Positions 1-11,826 of a stretch of DNA of 11,826 nt are shown piece after piece. Made by a program: the position numbers and the translations under genes. The DNA comes from a virus (Duplodnaviria > Heunggongvirae > Uroviricota > Caudoviricetes). The stretch covers positions 1 through 11,826 of IMG/VR virus record IMGVR_UViG_2917403263_000006. One strand, written 5' to 3'. The number at the start of each line of letters is the position of its first letter. Within the stretch, counting starts at the first letter, position 1. Below the pieces are notes generated by a model. The model did no database searches. It was given only the letters and a program-made list of their open reading frames with translations, and was not told the DNA's origin.

Positions 1-173
1 ATGGGGATTATGCCGAATAATGTTGGGGGGTTTGGGGATGTGAAAAGCGAGTTTAGTGTTTTTGAGGAATGAATTATTGCCATTGCAAAAAAGGATGATG
101 GAACTAAATAAATGGTTAGGCCATGAAATTTTGAAATTTGAGACATATATACTTAGCTAATTGCCATTTTTTA

Positions 174-211
174 AAAGCCACGCCAATAATTAATATTAGA
201 ACCGTGGCTTT
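174..211 (-). terminator. Hairpin (9-bp perfect stem AAAGCCACG/CGTGGCTTT, 20-nt loop) just downstream of the PIN-like gene stop; possible weak or bidirectional terminator
   Basis: Inverted repeat seen directly at 174-182 and 203-211, flanked by a T/A-rich tract (TTTTTTAAA on one side, TTTAATTT on the other). The loop is large and the U-tract is short, so strength is doubtful. Confidence 0.3.
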
Positions 212-229
212 AATTTAGAGCATTAGATA

Positions 230-1315
230 CTAACGTTTCAACCAAAGGTCATCTACAGAAAACGAATCGAATTCATTCTCAGATGGAGAATAAATAAAGC
301 TCACTGTAAAATACGGTCTAACCAAAATCTCTAAAGTCACAACGTCACCATCACCATGAGTAAATGGGAATGCCGAATCTAAATCGCTTTTATTTTCAAT
401 ATAATCCAAATAAGGAATATCCACTTCAATAAAAACCCGTCTCAAATTAAAAGAATAGGCAATGTAATATTTATCCGCATCAATTGAAGTGATGCCTTCA
501 ATATAGCCATCCTCGAAATCTTCGATGACATCAACTCTAACATCCAAAACATTCGAAACTCTAGACTCAAAAATATTATTTTCAAGGTATTGACTAAGCA
601 TCATGTGATTAAAACTTGATAAATAATCGATACACTCACCTTCTAGAAACTCCTCGAAATAAGGCTCACTTCTTGCATGATCAAAAGCATGGATACTCTT
701 ATCAATAGATGATGTAACGAAGTCAAATAGCTTCCGATATGGAGTTATTTTTTGTGTTATGCCTAACTCTTCAATATCTCTTAGAAGATCATCATTAAAC
801 GTTGCAGGACCTTTACTGTTGGTAAAAAAGTCTGAGCTATTCTCAGTAATAAATACAAAATCATCATTACCCCCTGATGATTTGATATATTGAAGAAAAG
901 ATAACCAGATCAACGTATCACGGTATCCTTTTTCTTGTTCTGAGAAAGGTTTTATCTTTTCAAGGGCCCTACCAACCACCTTAGCATGTGGAATATCGTT
1001 ATAATCTATTAAAATTAAATTATCAACTTCCTTATTTAATATTTCTTTCAAATCATATTGTTCAATACCTAAGTTTTCAATTTTAAAATCTATTGGATTC
1101 TGATTAAGCTTTTTAATTTTACTAATAATGGAACGCATTTCATTTAATTGATTTTTGAGCTCTCTATTCCTGATATTGTTAGTCTCCTCAATTACTAAAT
1201 TTGATAATAACAAGTCGTTACATTCATTATTCAAAAAATGGAAAAGAAGTTTAAAATTAGCATTTTTAGCAAACCAATTATTGTAAAATATATTTGTATC
1301 CAAAAAAACTTTCAT
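230..1315 (-). CDS. Hypothetical cargo protein with N-terminal PIN-like nuclease domain and about 190-aa C-terminal extension of unknown function
   Basis: 361-codon ORF, ATG at 1315-1313, TAG at 232-230. N-terminus MKVFLDTNIF matches the first acidic motif of PIN domains (hhhDTNhh), with further acidic positions (VIEE, ILIDYND, FVFITENSSDF) at PIN-like spacing. Strongly AT-rich relative to the phage backbone. A TATAAT -10 hexamer lies on the - strand at 1357-1352. Confidence 0.6.
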   Translation of the reverse strand: MKVFLDTNIFYNNWFAKNANFKLLFHFLNNECNDLLLSNLVIEETNNIRNRELKNQLNEMRSIISKIKKLNQNPIDFKIENLGIEQYDLKEILNKEVDNLILIDYNDIPHAKVVGRALEKIKPFSEQEKGYRDTLIWLSFLQYIKSSGGNDDFVFITENSSDFFTNSKGPATFNDDLLRDIEELGITQKITPYRKLFDFVTSSIDKSIHAFDHARSEPYFEEFLEGECIDYLSSFNHMMLSQYLENNIFESRVSNVLDVRVDVIEDFEDGYIEGITSIDADKYYIAYSFNLRRVFIEVDIPYLDYIENKSDLDSAFPFTHGDGDVVTLEILVRPYFTVSFIYSPSENEFDSFSVDDLWLKR

Positions 1316-1371
1316 CTGTCTTTTCCAGTGATGTAGTTAATAACATAGGTAATTATAAATTGAATTGTAGG

Positions 1372-1396
1372 CCGGATCCACTGATAGTGGATCCGG
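1372..1396. repeat. Perfect 25-bp palindrome CCGGATCCACT-GAT-AGTGGATCCGG (two GGATCC cores) upstream of the PIN-like gene; candidate operator or terminator hairpin
   Basis: Read directly: 11-bp arms are exact reverse complements around a 3-nt centre. It sits about 15-20 bp upstream of the - strand TATAAT at 1357-1352, where a -35 element would lie. Confidence 0.5.
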
Positions 1397-1838
1397 TTTA
1401 AAAGATTGCATTTATGGCAATGTCAAGTATAAAAACAACCACAACATAATGATTGTATATCCAAAGGCCGTCAGTAAATCATAGCAATTATCACTTACAG
1501 GGGATGTGCGATTTTAATCGTTCAGCCGCGCGCTCATATCCCCGCCACGCCTGCCCGCTTTATGTAGCGGTTTTCATGCAGGTGCATGATCTACGCAAAA
1601 TCCCACCAGTTCTGGCGGGCCTTAGCAAAAACGATCCGCAAACGATCATGCGATCTCATGCGGCATAGTCATGCACTTACGGGGGGAACTGAAATCCAGT
1701 AACCGAATGATCGCTTGAAAAACGAAACATACGTACTTACAAAGCACAAAGCCTGCTTTGAGCGAAGCGGACGTTAATAATGTTGCTGACCATCCCTAGT
1801 ACTTCTCATAATATAGCCCTATGTTAATCAACAAAATA

Positions 1839-2669
1839 TTAATTTGTCCCATCACTAAAGAATTTGATTGCGTCAGTTAGTACATAGTCAATGAAAATTT
1901 TTACGTGGAAGACCTGAAAAACGCTATTTTCTGAGTTTTGAATGAAATCTACAGCTATATCTTTTAGGTTGATCAACCAGTTATATTCTTCAATCAGTCT
2001 AGTTCTGGCATCCGCATCAGAATAACGACTCCGTAAGCTAAATGCCAGTTTCCTCATGATAACTGGATCAAGTTTCCTATAGCTTTCAATGAAAACATCA
2101 GCAGGAACTAAGTGTAAAAAAGGTACGTCATGAAGATTTAACTGTCTATTATTAGAATGACTCAATTCAGATAACAACGATGATTTTCCCCTTTGTAACT
2201 CATCTCTGAACTGCAATGCAAATTCCGAAATTGATTCATCAAACCGTTTCTTCCTTGCTATTTTAATATGTTCAATAATGAGCTTAAAGTCATCACTATC
2301 CCTGTCAAGAAAACTTAAACTACGCCATCCCCTTAATTCGTTATAATGCGTTTGCGCATATTCCTTATGTACATCTTCAGCTCTCAGTCTATTATAATAA
2401 TTATTTATATTCTGTTTTGTCTCATTTATGAGATCATGAACATCATCTGTTGTTAGACCTTCTTTCGCCATTTCCAGCAAAATACTCGCTGTCATCAGGA
2501 GTTCACCTAAGGTAGTGATCTTACCTGAAAATAGGTTATCCTTAGCAATAGCGTACTGCTCATAAAGCATAGTTTCATTTAGTTCTCTATAGTTCCACAA
2601 ACACCTCCATGCTGGTGAATCGCTGCTTCTAAAAAAAACGCGTAACATCCAACTGAGCAAGAAGATCAC
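1839..2669 (-). CDS. Hypothetical protein, predicted largely alpha-helical; either a separate partner gene of the upstream NTPase or its C-terminal continuation across a frame break
   Basis: 276-codon ORF (first codon GTG at 2669; internal ATGs at 2648 and 2570 have weak RBS), TAA at 1841-1839. It overlaps the NTPase ORF end by 41 nt, across an A8 run at 2631-2638. Same AT-rich composition as the NTPase ORF. No recognisable catalytic motif. Confidence 0.5.
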   Translation of the reverse strand: MIFLLSWMLRVFFRSSDSPAWRCLWNYRELNETMLYEQYAIAKDNLFSGKITTLGELLMTASILLEMAKEGLTTDDVHDLINETKQNINNYYNRLRAEDVHKEYAQTHYNELRGWRSLSFLDRDSDDFKLIIEHIKIARKKRFDESISEFALQFRDELQRGKSSLLSELSHSNNRQLNLHDVPFLHLVPADVFIESYRKLDPVIMRKLAFSLRSRYSDADARTRLIEEYNWLINLKDIAVDFIQNSENSVFQVFHVKIFIDYVLTDAIKFFSDGTN

Positions 2670-3732
2670 CCGTTACCTTTCCATCACAGATTAGTTCTCT
2701 CCAAGACGCGCCATCCAGTAACTTCTCGGTTAATACAGGAGACGAATATTTCTCGACAATCATGTCATACTTACTTTTGACGCGTTCTTTACCCAAAAAC
2801 ATACCATAATTAACATTGCCGATTGAATTGAAATCCTCGTAGCTAAGATTCCCTCCCCGGTACTCCATCGAAAAAATTAACAATTGATGAAAAAACACCC
2901 TTATAAATTCATCGTTACTTAAATATTTATCTCCCAAAAGGGAAATAATTCGTTGTACATCGAGAAAGAACTGCCTCAAGTGTCTTAGATTATTATAATT
3001 CGCTGACACATAGAGGTCCTCTATTGTCTGCATATCTTCTTTAAATATATTAGCAACATGCAAACTACTAATTACGCTCAAGAAAATCTTACAAGCACTA
3101 TGTAAATCTGACGTTACTTCAAATGTTTTACCTACTAGCTTTTCTTTTGTTCTCATGTATTCATTGCGATATTTCTCATCATCATTATTTATTCGCTTTT
3201 CTCTATTGATTATTTCATCTTCATTGGCAACCAAGATCGCTTTGTATCCGTTTACTTCCACAAAGTGATTTATATATCCAAATAAGATTGGTAAATCTAC
3301 ACCAGCTCTCTCGACATCATCAAAGACCAGCACAAAACCATCTGGTTTTCTAGTAAAGTCGCTAAGATTAATGGTGGGAACATTGCTATTGATATCTACG
3401 TCAGATTTATTATCGCCATTAAGATCGATCTTGAAAGTAGCCTTAAGCGTATTTTTTAGTACATTTGCACCAAAGATAAGGGCTTTGTTTGATAGGACAG
3501 GATGCAATTGACGATAGAACTCATCTTCAATCTGCTCAATAGAGTTGACGCCATACAAGCTCACTTTTAGAAATTTGAACTCTGAATGTTTCTGCTTATA
3601 TTCTTCAAGAACTCGTTCAATGAACCAAGTTTTACCTGATCCCCAAGCACCTTTAAGCATAATGGCGTATTGAGGTTCAGTTTTAAGGCTAAGGTAATAT
3701 TCTATATAGTCTTTGATGTACGTATTGTGCAT
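2629..3732 (-). CDS. P-loop NTPase, KAP-like (Walker A GAWGSGKT near the N-terminus; Walker B-like VLVFDDVER)
   Basis: ORF with ATG at 3732-3730 (the track ORF starts at an upstream TTG at 3783), TAG at 2631-2629. LKGAWGSGKTWFI fits the KAP-family G-x-W-G-S-G-K-S/T P-loop signature; VLVFDDVERAG fits the KAP hhhhDD-x-(D/E)R Walker B pattern. No obvious transmembrane segment. AT-rich. Candidate -10 TATAAT on the - strand at 3847-3842. Confidence 0.65.
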   Translation of the reverse strand: MHNTYIKDYIEYYLSLKTEPQYAIMLKGAWGSGKTWFIERVLEEYKQKHSEFKFLKVSLYGVNSIEQIEDEFYRQLHPVLSNKALIFGANVLKNTLKATFKIDLNGDNKSDVDINSNVPTINLSDFTRKPDGFVLVFDDVERAGVDLPILFGYINHFVEVNGYKAILVANEDEIINREKRINNDDEKYRNEYMRTKEKLVGKTFEVTSDLHSACKIFLSVISSLHVANIFKEDMQTIEDLYVSANYNNLRHLRQFFLDVQRIISLLGDKYLSNDEFIRVFFHQLLIFSMEYRGGNLSYEDFNSIGNVNYGMFLGKERVKSKYDMIVEKYSSPVLTEKLLDGASWRELICDGKVTGDLLAQLDVTRFF

Positions 3733-4053
3733 TTTTAGTCCATTTTTATAAAATACATAAACATAGATGGTAAGTAGAGCCAAAGGCCAACTATGGAAAA
3801 TTCAATCGGTAGTGTACATTGTAAGGTTATTATTGGTAAATATTATAGGAATACCCATAATCTTACAAAATTCAGATTATCCGTTGCAAATTAGTCTGCC
3901 ATTCGTTAATTGACGAAAGATAGCAGAAGAAATGTTCGCTTCTGGCACAAAGCGGACGATCACTTATAAAAATGACCGCCCACCTTACGCCTTATTTCAC
4001 TCATTGCCCAAACTAGCCCCCATCAGAATGAATCCTCCTGGGGGCAACATTTC

Positions 4054-4287
4054 TTAATGCTGCCAGCTGTCGTCTTCCCACACCTTCTGCATAATTTTCA
4101 TCACTTGTTTTCTTTCTTCGTCCAGTTGCAGTCCGGTAAGTTCCACACCGTGAGAGCTACCTTTGCGGATACGAATTACCGTTTTGGGATACAGGGGGCG
4201 CAGATTGCGGTAAAGCTCGGATTCAAGGGCGTCCAGGATAGACTGGCTAATCTTCTGCTCTTTATCGATCATTATTTCAATGCGCAT
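4054..4287 (-). CDS. DinI-family protein; likely the C-terminal DinI-like domain or short product of a Tum-type SOS-inducible antirepressor
   Basis: 77-codon ORF, ATG at 4287-4285 preceded by GGTGA with 5-nt spacer, TAA at 4056-4054. MRIEIMIDKEQ...KIMQKVWEDDSW resembles E. coli DinI (MRIEVTIAK...ILQETWES). The frame is open upstream into the 4298-4486 ORF region. Confidence 0.7.
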   Translation of the reverse strand: MRIEIMIDKEQKISQSILDALESELYRNLRPLYPKTVIRIRKGSSHGVELTGLQLDEERKQVMKIMQKVWEDDSWQH

Positions 4288-4297
4288 AAAAGTCACC

Positions 4298-4486
4298 TCA
4301 ACTGATGACATCCATTGAGCGGTTGTATTCGTGGGTTCTGATTTTTGCCATGAGTTCATCAGTCAATTCAGAAACCCACTGCAAAGCCAGCCCCTTCTCT
4401 TCATCACTACACTCACTAGCCGCTACAAGCTTAAGAAAAAAATCAATGCGCTGGAGCTTCAAAGACTCCAAAAAATAGTCCTGCAT
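4298..4486 (-). CDS. Small ORF (62 codons), probably the N-terminal part of a tum-like antirepressor gene, separated from the DinI-like ORF by a frame break
   Basis: ATG at 4486-4484 preceded by GGAGG (4-nt spacer), TGA at 4300-4298. LexA box 40 bp upstream. Removing one base from the T5 run at 4342-4346 fuses it in frame to the DinI-like ORF, giving about 143 aa, close to the about 146 aa I recall for phage 186 Tum. Confidence 0.5.
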   Translation of the reverse strand: MQDYFLESLKLQRIDFFLKLVAASECSDEEKGLALQWVSELTDELMAKIRTHEYNRSMDVIS

Positions 4487-4526
4487 CTTTCCTCCTATAA
4501 CACCAAAGAAATATTGTATACATAAC

Positions 4527-4546
4527 CACTGTTTATATTTACAGTA
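4527..4546. promoter_or_regulatory. LexA operator (SOS box) CACTGTTTATATTTACAGTA upstream of the tum-like operon
   Basis: CTGT-N8-ACAG core at 4529-4544 with AT-rich spacer; 17 of 20 matches to the E. coli consensus TACTGTATATATATACAGTA. It overlaps -10-like hexamers (TATACT, TACAAT on the - strand) about 40-60 bp upstream of the 4486 start. Phage 186 tum is known to be LexA-controlled. Confidence 0.65.
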
Positions 4547-4559
4547 TATAATAATCTTA

Positions 4560-4591
4560 CTGATGTAAAACGTTTTTTTTACGTTCATCAG
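4560..4591 (-). terminator. Imperfect hairpin (CTGATG...CATCAG outer stem, AACG/CGTT inner stem, T8 loop) between gene A stop and the SOS promoter; possible early-operon terminator
   Basis: Inverted repeat read directly. The U-tract after the stem on the - strand is poor (UAAGAUUAUUA), so termination efficiency is uncertain. Confidence 0.3.
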
Positions 4592-4639
4592 CCTGATATG
4601 CTTGGTATTATTAAGAGCACGAATTGTTAACCCGCGTAA

Positions 4640-6764
4640 TTAATACAGGTTCCGCCACTTATCATCTTCCTGCAAACGCTGGTTCCGATAGAAGATACGC
4701 AGGCCTGCTCCTGACGGAATACTGCCGCCGCGAAGGAGTAAATCGACCTCTTTCTCGCTACCATCAAATCCTCTGGACTTCAGTTCATAGGCGAGCTGCT
4801 GTCGCTGATGGTCTGTAATTCGCTGTTTGTAGTCTTTACGCCGTTTCGGTTTCACCAGGCGTAACCTTGCTGCCAGTTCCCGGCGCTCTTTTTTGCTCAT
4901 ACTGTGCAGGTAATCGTGCAACTCCTTGTCATCCATGCGGGTGATATCCGTTCTGGTATCCCCATCAGCTGATTTGTCTTTCCCTTGTTGGTTCAAATTT
5001 TCAGCAAGGGGACAGTTATTGCCACGAGTCCAAGGGGCGCAAGCGCCCTGGTCGGCTGCCGCCTCCTGAACGTCAACGGCCTTACGAACCATTTTCCACT
5101 TCACGGCATGAGTGCAGATCTTGCCCTCTGCAATGGGTGACCAGATGCCATAAATACGAATGCCGTGATCGCCATAGGCGGTCGGCTCTTCGTTGATTTC
5201 ATAAGCGGTTCTGATCAGGTGATATTTGCGGGGAACCAGTACGCCGCCCTGCTTCATGATGTAGGTGGCAAAACAACCAGCATCAGCAGCAGCCAGGATG
5301 GCATCAAGGCACGGGTTATCCAGTACCGGCGCACCTGCTTTTTTGTCCCCCTGTTGCCTTGCCGCCTGACCAGCCAGCAATCGCAGTTCACGGTAAGCCT
5401 GACGCCCCGGAATGCCAAAGAAGCGGAATTGCTGAACACGATGCAGAGACGCCCAGGCATTAACGTATTCAGCGTTATCACGCAGGGATTTACCCGTTTC
5501 CTTGCTGATCTCGCCAGCCAGACCACGCCCGTCAATGTTCTTACTGATGTATTTCGCGATGTAGCTTGTTGGCGTACCTTTACGCGGGTTAATCAACTCA
5601 GACTTAAAGCGCGGCCCAGTGTTATTGCCCAGCTCCTCGCGGTCTTCACGGATGGCAAACTTACGCAGTAATGCAGTGATGGCGCGGCGGTTCTTTTTTG
5701 TGCATAAAACACAACAGGTGCCAGTGAACTGTACCGTCATGATGCGGCTCAGCCACCCGCACGCCATACCAGCGCAATCCGGCTTTGTGCATCGCCTTAC
5801 GAAATGCAGCAAACATGCCGACCAGATAATCACTGCTTTGTCTTACCGTCGCATTTGTCCAGGTCGGGTTGGGCCTGCCGTTATTTAGCGTGGAATGGAA
5901 ACGTGACGGACAGGTGATGGTGTAGAAAACGGCGCAGTCACCGCGCATTTCCGCGATAAGCTCCAGACCTTTAACACAGGCCATCATCTCATTGCGGCGA
6001 TGCGCAGGGTTGCTGCTGCTGGCGTTTACCACATCCTCCATGTCCAGCGTGTCGCCGTCTTCGTTCACCAGTTCATGAGAACGGAAAAACTCCAGCGACT
6101 TACGGCGCTGCTCACGTTTATGCATCACGGCTTCATAGCTGACATAGGGAGATGCTTTTTTGCTGACCAGGCAAACAGCACGCAACTGCTCTTCCCGCCA
6201 TTCGCAACGCATCTTCCATAATTTCCGGTACCACCAGTCGGCGCACAACATACGTGCCAGCGAACCCGGAATGAGTTCATAGGGCACGGGTTTACGGCGG
6301 TTTCTTTTCCGGCGGAGTTGCTCAAACGCAGGCGGTATGACATCCAGTCGCAGGGTTTCTGCTGCCACCTTTTCCCATGTCTTGCGGATTTCTTCTGGCT
6401 TAACATCATCGGTGGCGTACAAATCACCACAAGCGGCATCAAGACACATGCTCATATGCGCAGCGACAAGAGTAGACAGGCGTTTCACCTGATCCTGACT
6501 CATTTCAGGCAAGTTCAGCAGGCCGTCCAGCCCTTCATGGCTTGCCATAAAGCGAAAAGAAGTGGATAGCTGACTCTCGCGTACATGCTCCAGTCGTTCC
6601 AGACATGGCTTAATCGTCTCACGCAAATAGCGGGAATAAGCCTTTGGCCTGCCCAGGCTGCTGAAGTATTCAATACGTTGCATCAGCGGCTTGCTGATAT
6701 GGGAAGGCTGGGCGTTAACGTCCGCCAGTATGACCATGTCCGGATTAAAAACGCTGCTGCTCAT
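4640..6764 (-). CDS. A: Replication initiation endonuclease gpA (P2/186 gene A, HUH rolling-circle nickase); reading frame is broken at the T6/A6 run 5694-5699 in the sequence as given
   Basis: Two ORFs in frames offset by one (5661-6863 and 4640-5833). The upstream half ends with the HUH motif [15 protein letters not shown]. The downstream half carries the active-site pair [13 protein letters not shown] about 50 residues later, the same spacing as in P2 gpA. Deleting one A restores ...[14 protein letters not shown]... as one protein of about 700 aa. Start is uncertain (ATG 6764, 6737 or 6833; none has a strong RBS). Confidence 0.85.
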
Positions 6765-7056
6765 GCGCCAGCTTTGCCCGGCTAATGAGCTTATCCTGCT
6801 CCATTTCGCGTTGGACAGGATCACGGGATTCATTAAAGAAATAACGCTCCCAGACCTGATCACTCAGTGCCTCGAGGCGCAGTTGTTCCTGCTCGTTATC
6901 GGCAGCGTACAGAGTGATCAGGTTTGAAAGCGCAGAAACCGGCGCAACTTCCGCCGGGTCCAGATAAGGGTTAATAGCCTTTTTCGGGCTGTTCCATGAG
7001 AATGCTGCGGCGGCCTCGTTAAAGCCGCTGCAGTTGTTCATATCAGCATGGCTCAT
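6745..7056 (-). CDS. Hypothetical phage early protein (103 aa)
   Basis: ORF whose ATG overlaps the dam stop in an ATGA stop-start overlap (7053-7056), suggesting translational coupling. No motif recognised. Confidence 0.5.
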
Positions 7057-7910
7057 GCACGCACTCCGTACACGGCAGAACTATCCACGCCACGCGAAGG
7101 ATCAAATCCCACCCAGCAGCGCACCCCAGAAACAGCGATGATTTCTGTTGCAGATTTACTCTCACCAGCTGCTACGCCGATGCTGCGTTTTGCCTTGATG
7201 TAGTGGTGAGTGAAATTGCGATACAGCGAACGGATCAGGGATGTGTCACTGTTAGAAACAATGACCGGATGTCCTTCTGATGACCGATGTTCAAGAACGG
7301 ATGCCAGGTGATACTGGTCATCTTCAGTGAAGCCGTCAGTGTGATAACCGGAAAACGTACCGTCATAAGGCGGATCGCAATACACCACATCCCCCACCTG
7401 CAGCATCGCCAGCGTTTCATCAAAGCTGGCGCAGATAAACGTTGCTCGCTGGGCTTTCTCTGCAAATGCGCGAATTTCTTTTTCAGGGAAATACGGATTT
7501 TTATAATTACCGTATGGAATGTTGAAATGCCCGCTCTTGTTATAACGACATAACCCACGGTAACCGTGACGATTGAGATACAGGAAATATACCGCTTTCA
7601 TGAAATCAGTAATTTCAGTTGAGTAATTAAACTCCTGTCTTATGTTGTAATAAGTCACCTCCCTGTTTGCGTCCTCAAATAAAGCTCTGGCACGAGATAT
7701 AAACACCTCACAATCAGCGGCAACCTTTTTATAGAGGTTGATTAAATCAGGATTAATATCCGCAACCAGATAGCAGGGATAATCCGTCTCCATCATCACA
7801 GCACAGGAACCCGCGAAAGGTTCAACCAGTCGCGGGCCAGCAGGAAGGTGTTTTTTCAGTTCGGACATAATGGCGGTTTTATTTCCCGCCCATTTCAGGA
7901 TGGTGCTCAT
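7053..7910 (-). CDS. dam: DNA adenine N6-methyltransferase (Dam-like)
   Basis: 286 codons from ATG 7910-7908 (GGAGGTG RBS; ATGA overlap with the upstream gene stop). N-terminus [11 protein letters not shown] with PFAGSCAV (AdoMet-binding FxGxG-like) and catalytic [12 protein letters not shown] (DPPY motif). The track ORF 7053-7970 includes a 20-codon 5-prime extension that is unlikely to be translated. Confidence 0.85.
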
Positions 7911-8134
7911 ACAGCACCTCCGTTGTAATGTTTGCCTTTCAGCTCTGCAATTTCCTGGCAGGTAATGCAAAGCTGCACACCCGGAATGGCACGGCGGCGT
8001 GCTGGCGGAATTGGCGCTTCACACTCAATGCAAAGCACGCGAGACACGCCCGGTGTTTTGGCACGGGCAGCACGGATATGGCGCTGGCGTTCTTCTTCAA
8101 CGCGCTGCTGTACGAGATCCATTGCATCAGCCAT
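7907..8134 (-). CDS. TraR/DksA-family C4 zinc-finger protein
   Basis: 75 aa, ATG 8134-8132 with AGGAG 8 nt upstream. Two CxxC pairs (CIECEAPIP ... CITCQ) in the DksA/TraR arrangement. P2-family early regions carry such a gene. Confidence 0.75.
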   Translation of the reverse strand: MADAMDLVQQRVEEERQRHIRAARAKTPGVSRVLCIECEAPIPPARRRAIPGVQLCITCQEIAELKGKHYNGGAV

Positions 8135-8367
8135 TAGTGGATCTCCTGCGCTTCGTTCTGGATTGCTTCAGCAGTCACACGCAGCAGTTCTGCTGCTTCC
8201 ACGTGGTTTAGCTGGCGGGATGTGATATGACACGCCAGGCTATCAAGGCGGGCAGCCATTGCCTCAGCCCTTGCCCGACGTTCTTCAAGACGGGCCTCTG
8301 TCAGTAAAAGATTAAGACCTGCATCATCCGGTCCGGTTTTAGTCGTGAGGGTTTCAATATTACGCAT
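8134..8367 (-). CDS. Hypothetical small phage early protein (77 aa; resembles the small Arg/Glu-rich helical proteins of P2-family early regions)
   Basis: ATG at 8367-8365 preceded by AGGAG (8-nt spacer); the track start at 8373 is a TTG. Its TAA stop overlaps the next ATG (TAATG). Confidence 0.55.
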   Translation of the reverse strand: MRNIETLTTKTGPDDAGLNLLLTEARLEERRARAEAMAARLDSLACHITSRQLNHVEAAELLRVTAEAIQNEAQEIH

Positions 8368-8434
8368 AATCAATTCTCCTGAATTTAGATAAAGGGATGC
8401 CCGGCGGGTTTACGCCATGAATTTCATTAATTGG

Positions 8435-8776
8435 TTAATTCGGCATGGTTAGCCGTCTGGGAAATAAGCTCACCACTGCACGAAAATGATTCATTGCTTT
8501 AATCAGCTCCCGCTTTTCGTCAGTGGTCAGCTCATTAATGCTGATGCTATGACGTTCAGCTGGAATTTTTGCCATAAAGAATATGGCAGCCAGTGCCCGT
8601 TTATTTTGTTCATTATTGATATCCCGTGGATCACGCATATCTTTAATAAACCGCTCAAGCTCTGACTCAATATTAAGGCCAAATACTTTCGCCCTTAACT
8701 CCGCAATATGATTAAGTCCATTCAGGCGTTCACCGGGGCTTAATGGAACAGTCGCCGCAGCGCCTTCAATAGCCAT
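8435..8776 (-). CDS. Hypothetical phage early protein (113 aa)
   Basis: ORF with ATG at 8776-8774 preceded by a G-rich RBS; overlaps the upstream small ORF by 37 nt in another frame. No motif recognised. Confidence 0.5.
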   Translation of the reverse strand: MAIEGAAATVPLSPGERLNGLNHIAELRAKVFGLNIESELERFIKDMRDPRDINNEQNKRALAAIFFMAKIPAERHSISINELTTDEKRELIKAMNHFRAVVSLFPRRLTMPN

Positions 8777-8940
8777 TTGTTCCCCCGTTTTTTCGTTGAT
8801 AGTTCTGCCAGCAATTCATCTTGTGAATGGCATGGATGCCAGCGTTTACCATCCTCACCCATGATCCAGCCGTGACCGTAGTGCATTGCCGGGCTTTGTT
8901 TTACCAGCAGCGATGCAAATGATGGTTCTTTCGTCAGCAT
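8740..8940 (-). CDS. Hypothetical small protein (66 aa) immediately after cII, in the position of the 186 fil-like gene
   Basis: ATG at 8940-8938 preceded by GAGGTG (4-nt spacer), which overlaps the cII stop. Contains HGW...HPCH. Function unknown. Confidence 0.4.
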   Translation of the reverse strand: MLTKEPSFASLLVKQSPAMHYGHGWIMGEDGKRWHPCHSQDELLAELSTKKRGNKWLLKALRRLFH

Positions 8941-8947
8941 AAGCACC

Positions 8948-9457
8948 TCACAGCAAACCGAATGAAGCACCGAGGCCAGTCACGGTATCAACTGCACTCG
9001 CCATCGCAGGATTAGCCTGTAAACGGGCCTGCAATGAAACAGCCGCCAGCGCCATCAGTCGTGTTACAGAGTTAATGCTGCTGATAGCATCACGACGACC
9101 TGCACTGGTTTTTACATCGCCAGATACCGCACCTGCAGCAACACGCCCGATCTCTGCGGTTGCACTCATGACGTAATGCGGCAGTTTCTCTTTTGCCACT
9201 TCATTAATCGGTACACATGGCAGGCAGTGAATCTGTGCCAGAAAGCCATCTACCAGCGTTGAATCTTCAGTCAGATCGGTAAGCAACCAGATTTCTGGTG
9301 CGGTTAATAAATGAGGTTGAGCTGGGTTCAGCTTGTTCCGCAGAATCTGTACATTCATGCCTGCACGTTCTGCCAGTTGCACTAGGTTGTGGCGCAGTGC
9401 GAATGCACGACAGGCTTCATCAAAATGTGGATGTTTGGAAACTTGGTAATCAAACAT
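8948..9457 (-). CDS. cII: CII-like lysogeny establishment activator (phage 186 CII family)
   Basis: 169 codons from ATG 9457-9455 (the track ORF starts at an upstream TTG). [24 protein letters not shown]...[25 protein letters not shown] closely matches the 186 CII sequence as I recall it, and the length equals 186 CII (169 aa). Confidence 0.7.
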
Positions 9458-9521
9458 AGTTTTCAACTCCGAACTTATCGCAAAATCGAACTCAGCGTCT
9501 TATTGCGAAAATAGACGTCTA

Positions 9522-9725
9522 TTAAGCAGACAAAGCATCAACAGTCAGAGCAGCTAGGTTAATCATTACCTTTTCACGTTTTTTGTCTTTACGAAGACGA
9601 TGACGAGGTAGTCGGCCATCAGCCAACATGTCGTTAATCGTATCAATAGAAAGGCCAGTTAGTTCGCTATAACGTTCGATTGTGACATGTGGTGTATTCA
9701 GAGTAATTGAAATGTTAGGTGTCAT
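9522..9725 (-). CDS. Apl/Cox-type small HTH excisionase and repressor of the lysogenic promoter
   Basis: 67-aa ORF, first gene of the leftward operon, divergent from cI. Helix-turn-helix-like segment VTIERYSELTGLSIDTINDMLADGRLP. Position matches 186 apl / P2 cox. Confidence 0.6.
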   Translation of the reverse strand: MTPNISITLNTPHVTIERYSELTGLSIDTINDMLADGRLPRHRLRKDKKREKVMINLAALTVDALSA

Positions 9726-9814
9726 AAGGCAACATTCCTTCTAGATATGGCTTGTGGCGAGCCGTTGTTTGTCGTGATTAGTAGTGAAGGCTCCAAAAGA
9801 ACTCTTCTGGTTCA

Positions 9815-9843
9815 ACTTTAAGATCGCTTTTGGAATCTGTCAA
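9815..9843 (-). promoter_or_regulatory. pR-like early lytic promoter (-35 TTGACA, 17-bp spacer, -10 TAAAGT) firing toward apl
   Basis: On the - strand: TTGACA (9843-9838), 17-nt spacer, TAAAGT (9820-9815); perfect -35, 4 of 6 at -10. It lies inside the 5-prime extension of the long cI ORF (9784-9870), which argues that extension is not coding. Confidence 0.45.
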
Positions 9844-9870
9844 CGATTTTTGGATTTCTCTGGAGGACTC

Positions 9871-10440
9871 GTGGATTTCAATAGCGGTGGTAAGAAGGCC
9901 ATAGAACGTTTGGTTGAAGCATATGGGTTTGGTACCCGTCAGGCTCTCTGTGATCATTTAGGTGTTTCTAAGAGCACCATGGCAACACGCTATATGCGTG
10001 ATATTTTTCCGGCAGATTGGGTAATCCAGTGCGCACTAGAAACAGGCATCTCACTTCATTGGCTTACGACCGGGCATGGTTCAAAGCAAGCATCAGCAAA
10101 AACAAATGCTATAGAAGTAGTAAAATATTTATTGTCTGATGGAGACTTGCAGGAAGACGGGGTTTATATTTTTGATAAGGGATTTCTACCCTCTACGTTT
10201 AAAAATCCTTTTGTAGTCACAGTTAATAATTCTGAATTTATTTGTGATAAAGAATTTGATGATATACGTGATGGTAAATGGGTAATAAGTATTGATGGCG
10301 AAATAACAATCCGCGACATTACTCGTTTACCCGGTGGGAGAATCTTCGTTGAAGGTGGAAACAGAGCCTTCGAGTGTAAGATAGAAGATGTTGAAATAAT
10401 TGGAAAAATTATAAGTTTAACAGTTAAATATGTTAGATAA
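9871..10440 (+). CDS. cI: CI-type immunity repressor (phage 186 CI family)
   Basis: N-terminal segment IERLVEAYGFGTRQALCDHLGVSKSTMATRYMRD...CALETGISLHWLTTG matches the 186 CI DNA-binding domain (LDRICEAYGF...HCALETGANLQWLLTG as I recall it). Start placed at GTG 9871 (GGAGG 4 nt upstream), giving 189 aa against 192 for 186 CI; the track ORF starts at GTG 9784. Confidence 0.75.
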   Translation: MDFNSGGKKAIERLVEAYGFGTRQALCDHLGVSKSTMATRYMRDIFPADWVIQCALETGISLHWLTTGHGSKQASAKTNAIEVVKYLLSDGDLQEDGVYIFDKGFLPSTFKNPFVVTVNNSEFICDKEFDDIRDGKWVISIDGEITIRDITRLPGGRIFVEGGNRAFECKIEDVEIIGKIISLTVKYVR

Positions 10441-10833
10441 TACCGGGGGAAACTATGCTTGGTAAGGTATTTTTTGTGGTTTTATCATGCTCTTTGTTAT
10501 TAAACCCACTAACTACCTATGCTAAAAATTAATCCTTGTTCTGGGAAAAAGGGAGGTGTCTCTCACTGTACCTCCGATGGAAAATTTGTATGCAATGATG
10601 GGGCTATTAGTAAATCCAAAAAAATCTGTACTAAATACTCACGATAAATTTTGCTCTGATATCTGCGCCTAATATAACAATGAGGCGCAGGCTAACCACA
10701 AAAGTTACATACTCACATAACAAAAAATAGCCAACTTCATTATGGCTTCAGTGAGATGTATGGTCGCGGGATCTCATACATTGACACTGGTTATATATAC
10801 AGTAAAAATGCTCTCCACTGGAGGGCATTTTTT

Positions 10834-11826
10834 ATGGCAGTACGAAAACTCACCACAGGAAAATGGCTTTGCGAATGTTACCCCGCCGGACGTAGTGGAC
10901 GTCGTGTGCGTAAACAATTCGCCACCAAAGGCGAAGCTCTGGCTTTTGAGCGTCACACGATGGAAGAAACCGAAGCAAAGCCCTGGCTGGGTGAATCAGT
11001 GGATCGTCGAACACTGAAAGACGTGGTTGAGCTATGGTTCAAACTACATGGTAAATCTCTGACTGCTGGGCAGCATGTCTATGACAAATTGCTGCTGATG
11101 GTTGACGCTCTGGGCAATCCCCTTGCAACCGATCTCACATCTAAAATGTTTGCCCATTATCGAGATAAACGACTGACAGGTGAGATCTACTTCAGCGAGA
11201 AATGGAAGAAAGGAGCCAGCCCGGTCACCATTAACCTGGAGCAAAGCTATCTAAGTAGTGTTTTTAGCGAACTATCCCGCCTGGGCGAATGGTCGTATCC
11301 AAACCCACTGGAGAACATGCGAAAATTCACCATCGCAGAAAAAGAGATGGCATGGCTTACCCATGAGCAGATTGTTGAACTGCTGGCTGATTGCAAACGT
11401 CAGGACCCAATTCTGGCACTGGTAGTCAAGATATGCTTAAGCACAGGCGCACGCTGGCGAGAAGCAATAAACCTTACCCGATCACAGGTGACCAAATACC
11501 GAATTACCTTTGTAAGAACGAAGGGGAAGAAAAACAGAAGCATCCCTATCAGTAAAGAGCTTTACGAAGAGATCATGGCGCTTGATGGGTTCAATTTCTT
11601 CACAGACTGCTATTTTCAATTTTTATCCGTGATGGAAAAAAACGTCTATCGTGCTCCCTCGCGGTCAACTGACACACGTTCTGCGCCATACGTTTGCGGC
11701 GCACTTCATGATGTCGGGTGGAAATATCCTTGCTTTGCAAAAAATCCTCGGACATCACGATATAAAAATGACAATGCGTTACGCACATCTGGCACCGGAT
11801 CACCTGGAAACTGCATTACGGTTTAA
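10834..11826 (+). CDS. int: Tyrosine integrase (P2/186 family), 3-prime end beyond the window; reading frame breaks at the A7 run 11636-11642 in the sequence as given
   Basis: ATG at 10834 (MAVRKLTTGKWLCECYPAGRSGRRVRKQFATKGEALAFE is a typical P2/186-type integrase N-terminus). The conserved catalytic C-terminus VLPRGQLTHVLRHTFAAHFMMSGGNILALQKILGHHDIKMTMRYAHLAPDHLE is present only in the +1 frame after 11642. Deleting one A gives ...DCYFQFLSVMEKTSIVLPRGQLTH..., the same length as the 186 Int segment between TDAY and LPKGQ. Confidence 0.85.
   Translation: MAVRKLTTGKWLCECYPAGRSGRRVRKQFATKGEALAFERHTMEETEAKPWLGESVDRRTLKDVVELWFKLHGKSLTAGQHVYDKLLLMVDALGNPLATDLTSKMFAHYRDKRLTGEIYFSEKWKKGASPVTINLEQSYLSSVFSELSRLGEWSYPNPLENMRKFTIAEKEMAWLTHEQIVELLADCKRQDPILALVVKICLSTGARWREAINLTRSQVTKYRITFVRTKGKKNRSIPISKELYEEIMALDGFNFFTDCYFQFLSVMEKNVYRAPSRSTDTRSAPYVCGALHDVGWKYPCFAKNPRTSRYKNDNALRTSGTGSPGNCITV

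Follow-up and report, generated by a model that had tools for sequence, protein, structure and literature searches.

A probable homopolymer overcall splits a 630-aa KAP-like NTPase gene in a P2-like prophage of Escherichia sp. E3659

Organisation of the prophage segment

The stretch of DNA analysed here, referred to over its full length of 11,826 nucleotides as the window, represents the half of a P2-like prophage that carries the early genes. It corresponds, with 100% identity, to positions 1-11826 of PDID01000005.1 (GCA_004745145.1; 113,544 bp; Escherichia sp. E3659). This contig starts within the prophage portal gene (window position 1), which means that the assembly broke inside the prophage. 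Strain E3659 (PDID00000000) belongs to cryptic clade II and originates from Hong Kong intertidal sediment (PMC6639607). As a whole, the window carries the genes given below, and no RNA family was found anywhere in it with Rfam.

1-160, plus strand: portal gene, 3' end
1315-230, minus strand: PIN_12 gene, 361 aa, directly downstream of the NTPase gene
1839-3732, minus strand: complete NTPase gene, 630 aa, 1,894 nt in the window and very probably 1,893 nt in reality
4359-4054, minus strand: DinI-like gene
7056-4640, minus strand: gpA
7910-7053, minus strand: Dam methylase gene
Between the Dam methylase and CI repressor genes: small early genes
9871-10440, plus strand: CI repressor gene
10455-10647, plus strand: YdcA-like gene
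10834 to the end of the window, plus strand: int

Interruption of the NTPase gene

The NTPase gene extends from an ATG (3732-3730) to a TAA, in all probability its true stop (1841-1839, minus strand). Two features lie between them at the point where the reading frame is broken:

2631-2638, minus strand: T8 homopolymer (A8 on the plus strand), very probably miscalled, with a true length of 7
2629-2631, minus strand: TAG stop codon, very probably false and made by the extra T; in the likely true frame, its bases fall in TTT-AGA (Phe367-Arg368)

On the minus strand, the codons at the break read ...GAT GTT ACG CGT TTT TTT TAG AAG CAG..., and the first base of the TAG (2631-2629) is the last T of the T8 run (2638-2631). 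The ORF starting at the ATG at 3732 is 367 aa long, ends in ...LAQLDVTRFF* and already matches Pfam KAP_NTPase with 75.4 bits (cutoff 20) over its residues 4-263. The downstream ORF (2669-1839, minus strand), with 276 aa and a GTG start, lies in the +1 frame and is open through the T8 run. The initial annotation had described both the contribution of the A8 run to the stop codon and the GTG-initiated ORF that stays open across it, and the sequence confirmed these two points. When one base is removed from the run, a continuous ORF of 1,893 nt (630 aa) is obtained, reading ...TRFFRSSDSPAWRCLWNYRELNETMLYEQ... at the junction.

As for the run itself, its length is not unusual for the composition of the window, in which two 8-base A/T runs are observed vs. 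2.35 expected from shuffles. The automatic gene calls of PDID01000005.1 give products of 367 and 253 aa. Searched for by exact match, the 367-aa protein was found on one contig only, PDID01000005.1. The C-terminal ORF (2669-1839) has, by itself, no family match.

Homologues and the conserved junction

Among E. coli complete genomes, 46 carry the locus, and the match spans the full 2 kb in all of them. A single feature, "P-loop NTPase fold protein", is annotated in each of the 20 genomes listed of these 46, and in the three E. coli loci that were opened the NTPase gene has 1,893 nt and encodes 630 aa. In a large protein collection, about 115 of the best 120 homologues listed (down to 28% identity) have a length of 585-728 aa, the shorter ones being mostly flagged as partial or located on short contigs. 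These homologues include proteins of Serratia, Edwardsiella, Pantoea, Erwinia, Paraburkholderia, Pseudomonas, Psychrobacter, Methylobacter and Lysobacter. Together with the 46 E. coli genomes, they (down to 26-28% identity) indicate a single protein of roughly 600-660 aa, in line with the earlier suggestion that a single KAP-like protein of ca. 630 aa would be of a more typical size. Whether homologous loci are fused or split had been raised as a check: they are fused, and a two-gene arrangement was found in none of the homologues examined (46 E. coli loci and about 120 wider homologues). Also, of the 287-member cluster to which the 367-aa protein of the window belongs, 40 members were listed, and no other of these has a length of 367 aa.

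The break was placed on an alignment of 38 homologues sharing 26-95% identity. It falls between F367 and R368, inside the conserved motif S-[RK]-[YF]-F-x5-P-x-W-x2-L-W, which in the NTPase corresponds to the following feature:

2590-2652, minus strand: junction motif LDVTRFFRSSDSPAWRCLWNY, residues about 361-381, cut in two by the probably false stop

Residues 360-376 are aligned without gaps in 37 of the 38 homologues, the exception being one sequence with an insertion of one residue, and W344, W375, L378 and W379, on both sides of the break, are invariant in all 38. Likewise, the PADLOC PDC-S49 profiles (619-629 positions) and PHROG 4740 (627 positions) each cover both halves of the protein.

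Concerning phages, a near-identity DNA search of a phage collection gave no match, and a protein-level search of the same collection gave only three partial matches, with 25-36% identity, so that no sequenced phage genome was informative.

Comparison with other assemblies of strain E3659

The window was compared with two further assemblies, VATQ01000003.1 (GCA_005781135.1), which is also named Escherichia sp. E3659, and the Logan assembly of run SRR8835201; the VATQ01 sequence and the Logan contig may come from a common set of reads and may therefore count as one independent replicate. A literature search for VATQ and SRR8835201 found no paper on the platform that was used for them. Between VATQ01 and the window, there are 8 indel events over 11.8 kb, which are all run-length changes, and 0 substitutions, and no difference other than these 8 events was found when the comparison was extended to the whole PDID01 locus (13.7 kb). 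For the Logan contig, compared over 5.0 kb, the figures are 4 indel events and 0 substitutions. Seven of the eight events consist of one additional base in the window, the eighth being an undercall of a T and a C. Their distribution is as follows, the run length of the window being given first and that of the other assemblies second:

11636-11642, plus strand: 7 vs. 6 (A7 in the window), breaks int
10531-10532, plus strand: 2 vs. 1, breaks the small YdcA-family gene (10455-10647)
6747-6751, minus strand: 5 vs. 4, first break of gene A
5691-5692, minus strand: 2 vs. 1, second break of gene A
4573-4580, strand not assigned: 8 vs. 7 (T8 on the plus strand), intergenic, between gpA and orf62/DinI, probably an overcalled 7-base run
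2631-2638, minus strand: 8 vs. 7, breaks the NTPase gene
1681-1686, strand not assigned: 6 vs. 5 (G6; C6 on the minus strand), intergenic, between the NTPase and PIN_12 genes
Position 42: T and C undercall, breaks the 3' end of the portal gene, 42 bases from the contig end

At the NTPase site, a T7 is present in both VATQ01000003.1 and the Logan assembly, the nearby sequence being otherwise equal. The proposal that the run holds one base too many is thus borne out by a T7 and an intact 630-aa ORF in these two assemblies, and the parallel that had been drawn with the breaks of int and gene A also holds, since the differences at 11636-11642, 6747-6751 and 5691-5692 are +1 run-length differences as well. 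The window has only two 8-base runs, and both of them are 7-base runs in the other assemblies. In VATQ01, the genes concerned are intact: int (343 aa), YdcA (63 aa), gpA (804 aa), NTPase (630 aa) and portal (342 aa). The 630-aa protein WP_138183114.1/TLJ13556.1 ("NTPase KAP [Escherichia sp. E3659]"), encoded on VATQ01000003.1 and on the Logan assembly of SRR8835201, is 100% identical, over its full length, to the translation of the window with one base deleted. In VATQ01, moreover, the prophage is contiguous. As is the case in E. coli KE47, it adjoins a TetR-family regulator gene and an MFS transporter gene, annotated in KE47 as rcdA and ybjJ, respectively.

When the overcalls are sorted by run length, they affect 2 of 7268 1-mers, 1 of 145 4-mers, 1 of 59 5-mers, 1 of 27 6-mers and 2 of 8 7-mers; although these counts are small, the overcall frequency climbs as the homopolymer lengthens. 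Independent support for the shorter run lengths comes from E. coli: its prophages (88-98% identity) have the shorter length at every comparable site, and at the NTPase site the relatives read CGA TTT TTT AGA, that is, 7 bases in an interrupted A+T6 tract.

Origin of the frame break

Flow-based chemistries (Ion Torrent, 454) are well known for run-length errors at homopolymers. In Ion Torrent sequencing, a homopolymer is read as one analogue signal, and long runs are therefore often mis-sized; overcalls from one to two bases, though rarer, are documented as well for flow chemistry. The E3659 reads are Ion Torrent, single-end reads of 35-400 bp with a coverage of about 40x, and they were assembled with MIRA and SPAdes (PMC6639607). 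The marks of such an artefact are found together here, namely flow-based reads, differences restricted to run length and an error that rises with homopolymer length.

Based on the direct comparison of the assemblies and on the documented Ion Torrent platform, we consider, with a probability of about 95%, that the frame break is a base-calling or assembly artefact and that the organism has a single 630-aa gene. A flow-chemistry overcall would have written a true T7 as T8, and the error would have been carried into the consensus, the extra T turning CGT TTT TTT AGA (R-F-F-R) into CGT TTT TTT TAG. The T8 of the window is a property of the deposited assembly, not of the organism.

The best of the alternatives is a genuine T8 mutation in the sequenced culture, due to slipped-strand phase variation or prophage decay, the NTPase gene being a pseudogene or in the OFF state there. 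Replication can indeed slip on T7/T8 tracts, the two E3659 deposits do differ at the NTPase site, and phase variation is known to affect defence genes in other bacteria. It would have to account, however, for seven more run-length differences in 11.8 kb, with 0 substitutions and five genes broken, some of these differences being located in intergenic runs and some being changes from one to two bases; such a density would lead to thousands of frameshifts per 5-Mb genome. The +1 bias and the run-length dependence, albeit in a small sample, fit flow-chemistry error instead. Furthermore, no other 367-aa form occurs among the 40 listed members of the cluster, and the E. coli relatives possess an interrupted A+T6 tract. 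Phase-variable tract-length polymorphism was absent from the E. coli genes that were opened, all of which have intact 630-aa ORFs. A genuine mutation is consequently regarded as very unlikely. Prophage decay or pseudogenisation, for its part, was rejected, since substitutions with respect to the other assemblies are absent and the indels depend on run length.

Even less credible is the view that the T7 is a real slippage-prone switch and the T8 an OFF subpopulation of E3659, which would amount to phase variation of a P2-hotspot defence gene and in which some residual full-length protein could possibly be made via a +1 shift at UUU-UAG.

Programmed recoding would also take the T8 as real, with a +1 frameshift at UUU-UAG or transcriptional slippage giving rise to both 367-aa and 630-aa products. 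The sequence CGU UUU UUU UAG A does allow a perfect +1 re-pairing of tRNA-Phe, followed by the rare AGA codon: peptidyl-tRNA-Phe would re-pair on U6-U8 with the stop codon in the A site, as in prfB. As to slippage during transcription, A/T runs of 8-9 bases are known to promote it. Yet recoding sites are conserved, whereas the combination of a slippery run and a 0-frame stop is missing from the homologues examined and from the other assemblies of E3659 (7 bases, in frame), and no Shine-Dalgarno-like stimulator was found upstream of the T8 (GGATGTTACGCG). Recoding, the likelihood of which is negligible, was rejected on two grounds: the site lacks conservation, and the true sequence stays in frame.

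Finally, two genuine overlapping genes, i.e. a 367-aa NTPase and a separately translated partner of 253-276 aa, can be dismissed as extremely improbable: even though the automatic caller annotated 367-aa and 253-aa products on the deposited contig and a GTG start is present at 2669, this arrangement exists in no homologue examined, the second half taken by itself matches no family, the junction falls in a conserved motif without gaps, and both halves are covered by each family profile and each homologue.

The base-calling artefact being the preferred reading, the split itself is of little biological significance, and the intact gene is already catalogued, both in RefSeq (WP_138183114.1) and as the PADLOC candidate PDC-S49. 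Note that RefSeq also holds the 367-aa WP_240727713.1 ("P-loop NTPase fold protein", window 3732-2629), in all likelihood artefactual, from the PDID01 contig. More generally, all frame breaks of the window are suspect, as probably are those in the rest of PDID01 and in the 15 sister assemblies made from Ion Torrent reads in that study; many false frameshifts are to be expected in PDID01 and probably in its sisters.

Features of the 630-aa protein

The NTPase matches the Pfam family KAP_NTPase (PF07693) with 74.2-75.4 bits vs. a cutoff of 20, its residues 4-263 corresponding to positions 3-290 of the 293 of the profile. Three PADLOC models of PDC-S49 match with E-values of 1e-156, 1.1e-148 and 2.6e-87 and are covered almost entirely (positions 5-614 of 624 for the best one, E=1e-156), and PHROG 4740 is matched over positions 1-611 of 627 (E=6e-61). 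NCBIfam gave no model for this protein. Two motifs of the NTPase domain were located in the window:

3628-3651, minus strand: Walker A, GAWGSGKT, residues 28-35; G28, W30, G31, G33 and K34 invariant in the 38 homologues
3307-3336, minus strand: Walker B region, VLVFDDVER, within residues 133-142; F137, D138, D139, E141 and R142 invariant in the 38 homologues

About 265 N-terminal residues constitute the KAP-type P-loop NTPase, and the remaining 365 or so are all-alpha. An AlphaFold2 model built from the 38-homologue alignment (mean pLDDT 83.2, pTM 0.66) predicts an alpha/beta P-loop core for residues 1 to ~205 and an all-alpha fold for the rest, up to residue 629. In this model, the junction is flanked by helices 355-362 and 374-378 and has a pLDDT of 83-88.

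Many KAP NTPases have transmembrane helices between Walker A and Walker B, an arrangement that is typical, albeit not universal. No transmembrane segment was detected in the whole protein, the best 19-residue Kyte-Doolittle mean being 1.44. Residues 80-122 (window about 3495-3367, minus strand), between Walker A and Walker B, form a hydrophilic insert with a pLDDT below 50; the presence of the invariant D103 and P119 in this insert suggests a conserved functional loop rather than a membrane anchor. Given the lack of a transmembrane insert, unlike in Tmn, "KAP-like, soluble" is the more accurate description. The product of the real gene is predicted to be a soluble KAP-like P-loop NTPase of the PDC-S49/PHROG 4740 family. 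No paper naming or testing PDC-S49 was found, and PDC entries are candidates only.

Defence hotspot and neighbouring genes

In P2-like prophages, the slot between gpA and gpQ is an anti-phage hotspot, where P2 carries old and tin (Rousset et al. 2022, PMC9122126). Located between gpA/DinI and the portal gene, the NTPase gene lies in this hotspot. The main text of that article does not mention the NTPase family; where the terms NTPase, KAP and P-loop occur, they concern STAND proteins of the P4 hotspot or belong to references. The gene order gpA, orf62, DinI, NTPase, variable gene and portal is shared by the three E. coli loci, VATQ01 and the Logan contig. The second cargo gene beside the NTPase is the PIN_12 gene here; in E. 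coli, its place is taken by a gene for a RES-family NAD+ phosphorylase, for an AIPR protein or for a hypothetical protein. As this neighbouring cargo varies between relatives, the NTPase gene may be a self-contained single-gene module.

The PIN_12 domain is N-terminal (residues 3-163, Pfam E=2.3e-27), and the protein has no match in PADLOC or PHROG; the gene may represent a second, uncatalogued defence or toxin cargo. Homology with the E. coli prophages stops at about position 1527-1533 of the window, ca. 310 bp past the NTPase stop, and this is the point where the shared NTPase module gives way to the variable second cargo.

A further observation concerns the region 4054-4486 (minus strand), where the DinI-like gene is called, in the PDID01 and VATQ01 loci, as a 101-aa gene overlapping the 62-aa upstream ORF. 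In the Logan contig and in the RefSeq annotation of the E. coli relatives the DinI-like gene has 77 aa, and the 101-aa call is probably the result of an over-extended start.

Comparison with known systems

With respect to sequencing, the window displays the same pattern as known Ion Torrent/454 miscalls, i.e. apparent frameshifts in conserved genes that are due to run-length changes only, and differs from it in nothing. As for the protein, it is of the same size class as PDC-S49 and PHROG 4740 (about 620-630 aa), a family that is itself a bioinformatic candidate, and its gene has the same position and the same kind of variable neighbour as the cargo of the gpA-gpQ (old/tin) hotspot.

Two experimentally studied KAP systems provide the nearest functional models. 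Tmn, a transmembrane KAP NTPase (Gao et al. 2020), is anti-phage, and its NTPase domain drives synergy with other systems. In the case of EF_KAP of Enterococcus faecalis, defence requires Walker B and a 322-aa C-terminal region of unknown function. Like these single-gene, KAP-type systems, the 630-aa protein combines an NTPase part with a long C-terminal region behind it that is uncharacterised, whereas both Tmn and EF_KAP carry transmembrane helices, of which it has none. The PADLOC Tmn models did not match it at E<=0.1. It is not a member of the Tmn family, and only by analogy would it work like Tmn or EF_KAP. Since EF_KAP needs its C-terminal region, a real truncation at 367 aa would, by the same analogy, be inactive.

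From the hotspot position, the candidate status in PADLOC and the likeness to Tmn and EF_KAP, both of which require NTPase motifs, we infer that the 630-aa protein could function as an NTP-driven anti-phage switch of the KAP/STAND type, in which the C-terminal helical region would serve as sensor, effector or both. Such a soluble KAP-like NTPase, as predicted from its sequence, appears to be a reasonable anti-phage candidate in a known hotspot, and no surprise there. The AAA+/STAND ATPases, including Cdc6/Orc, TnsC, RdrA of RADAR, BrxC and the NLRs, are also counted among its closest known systems.
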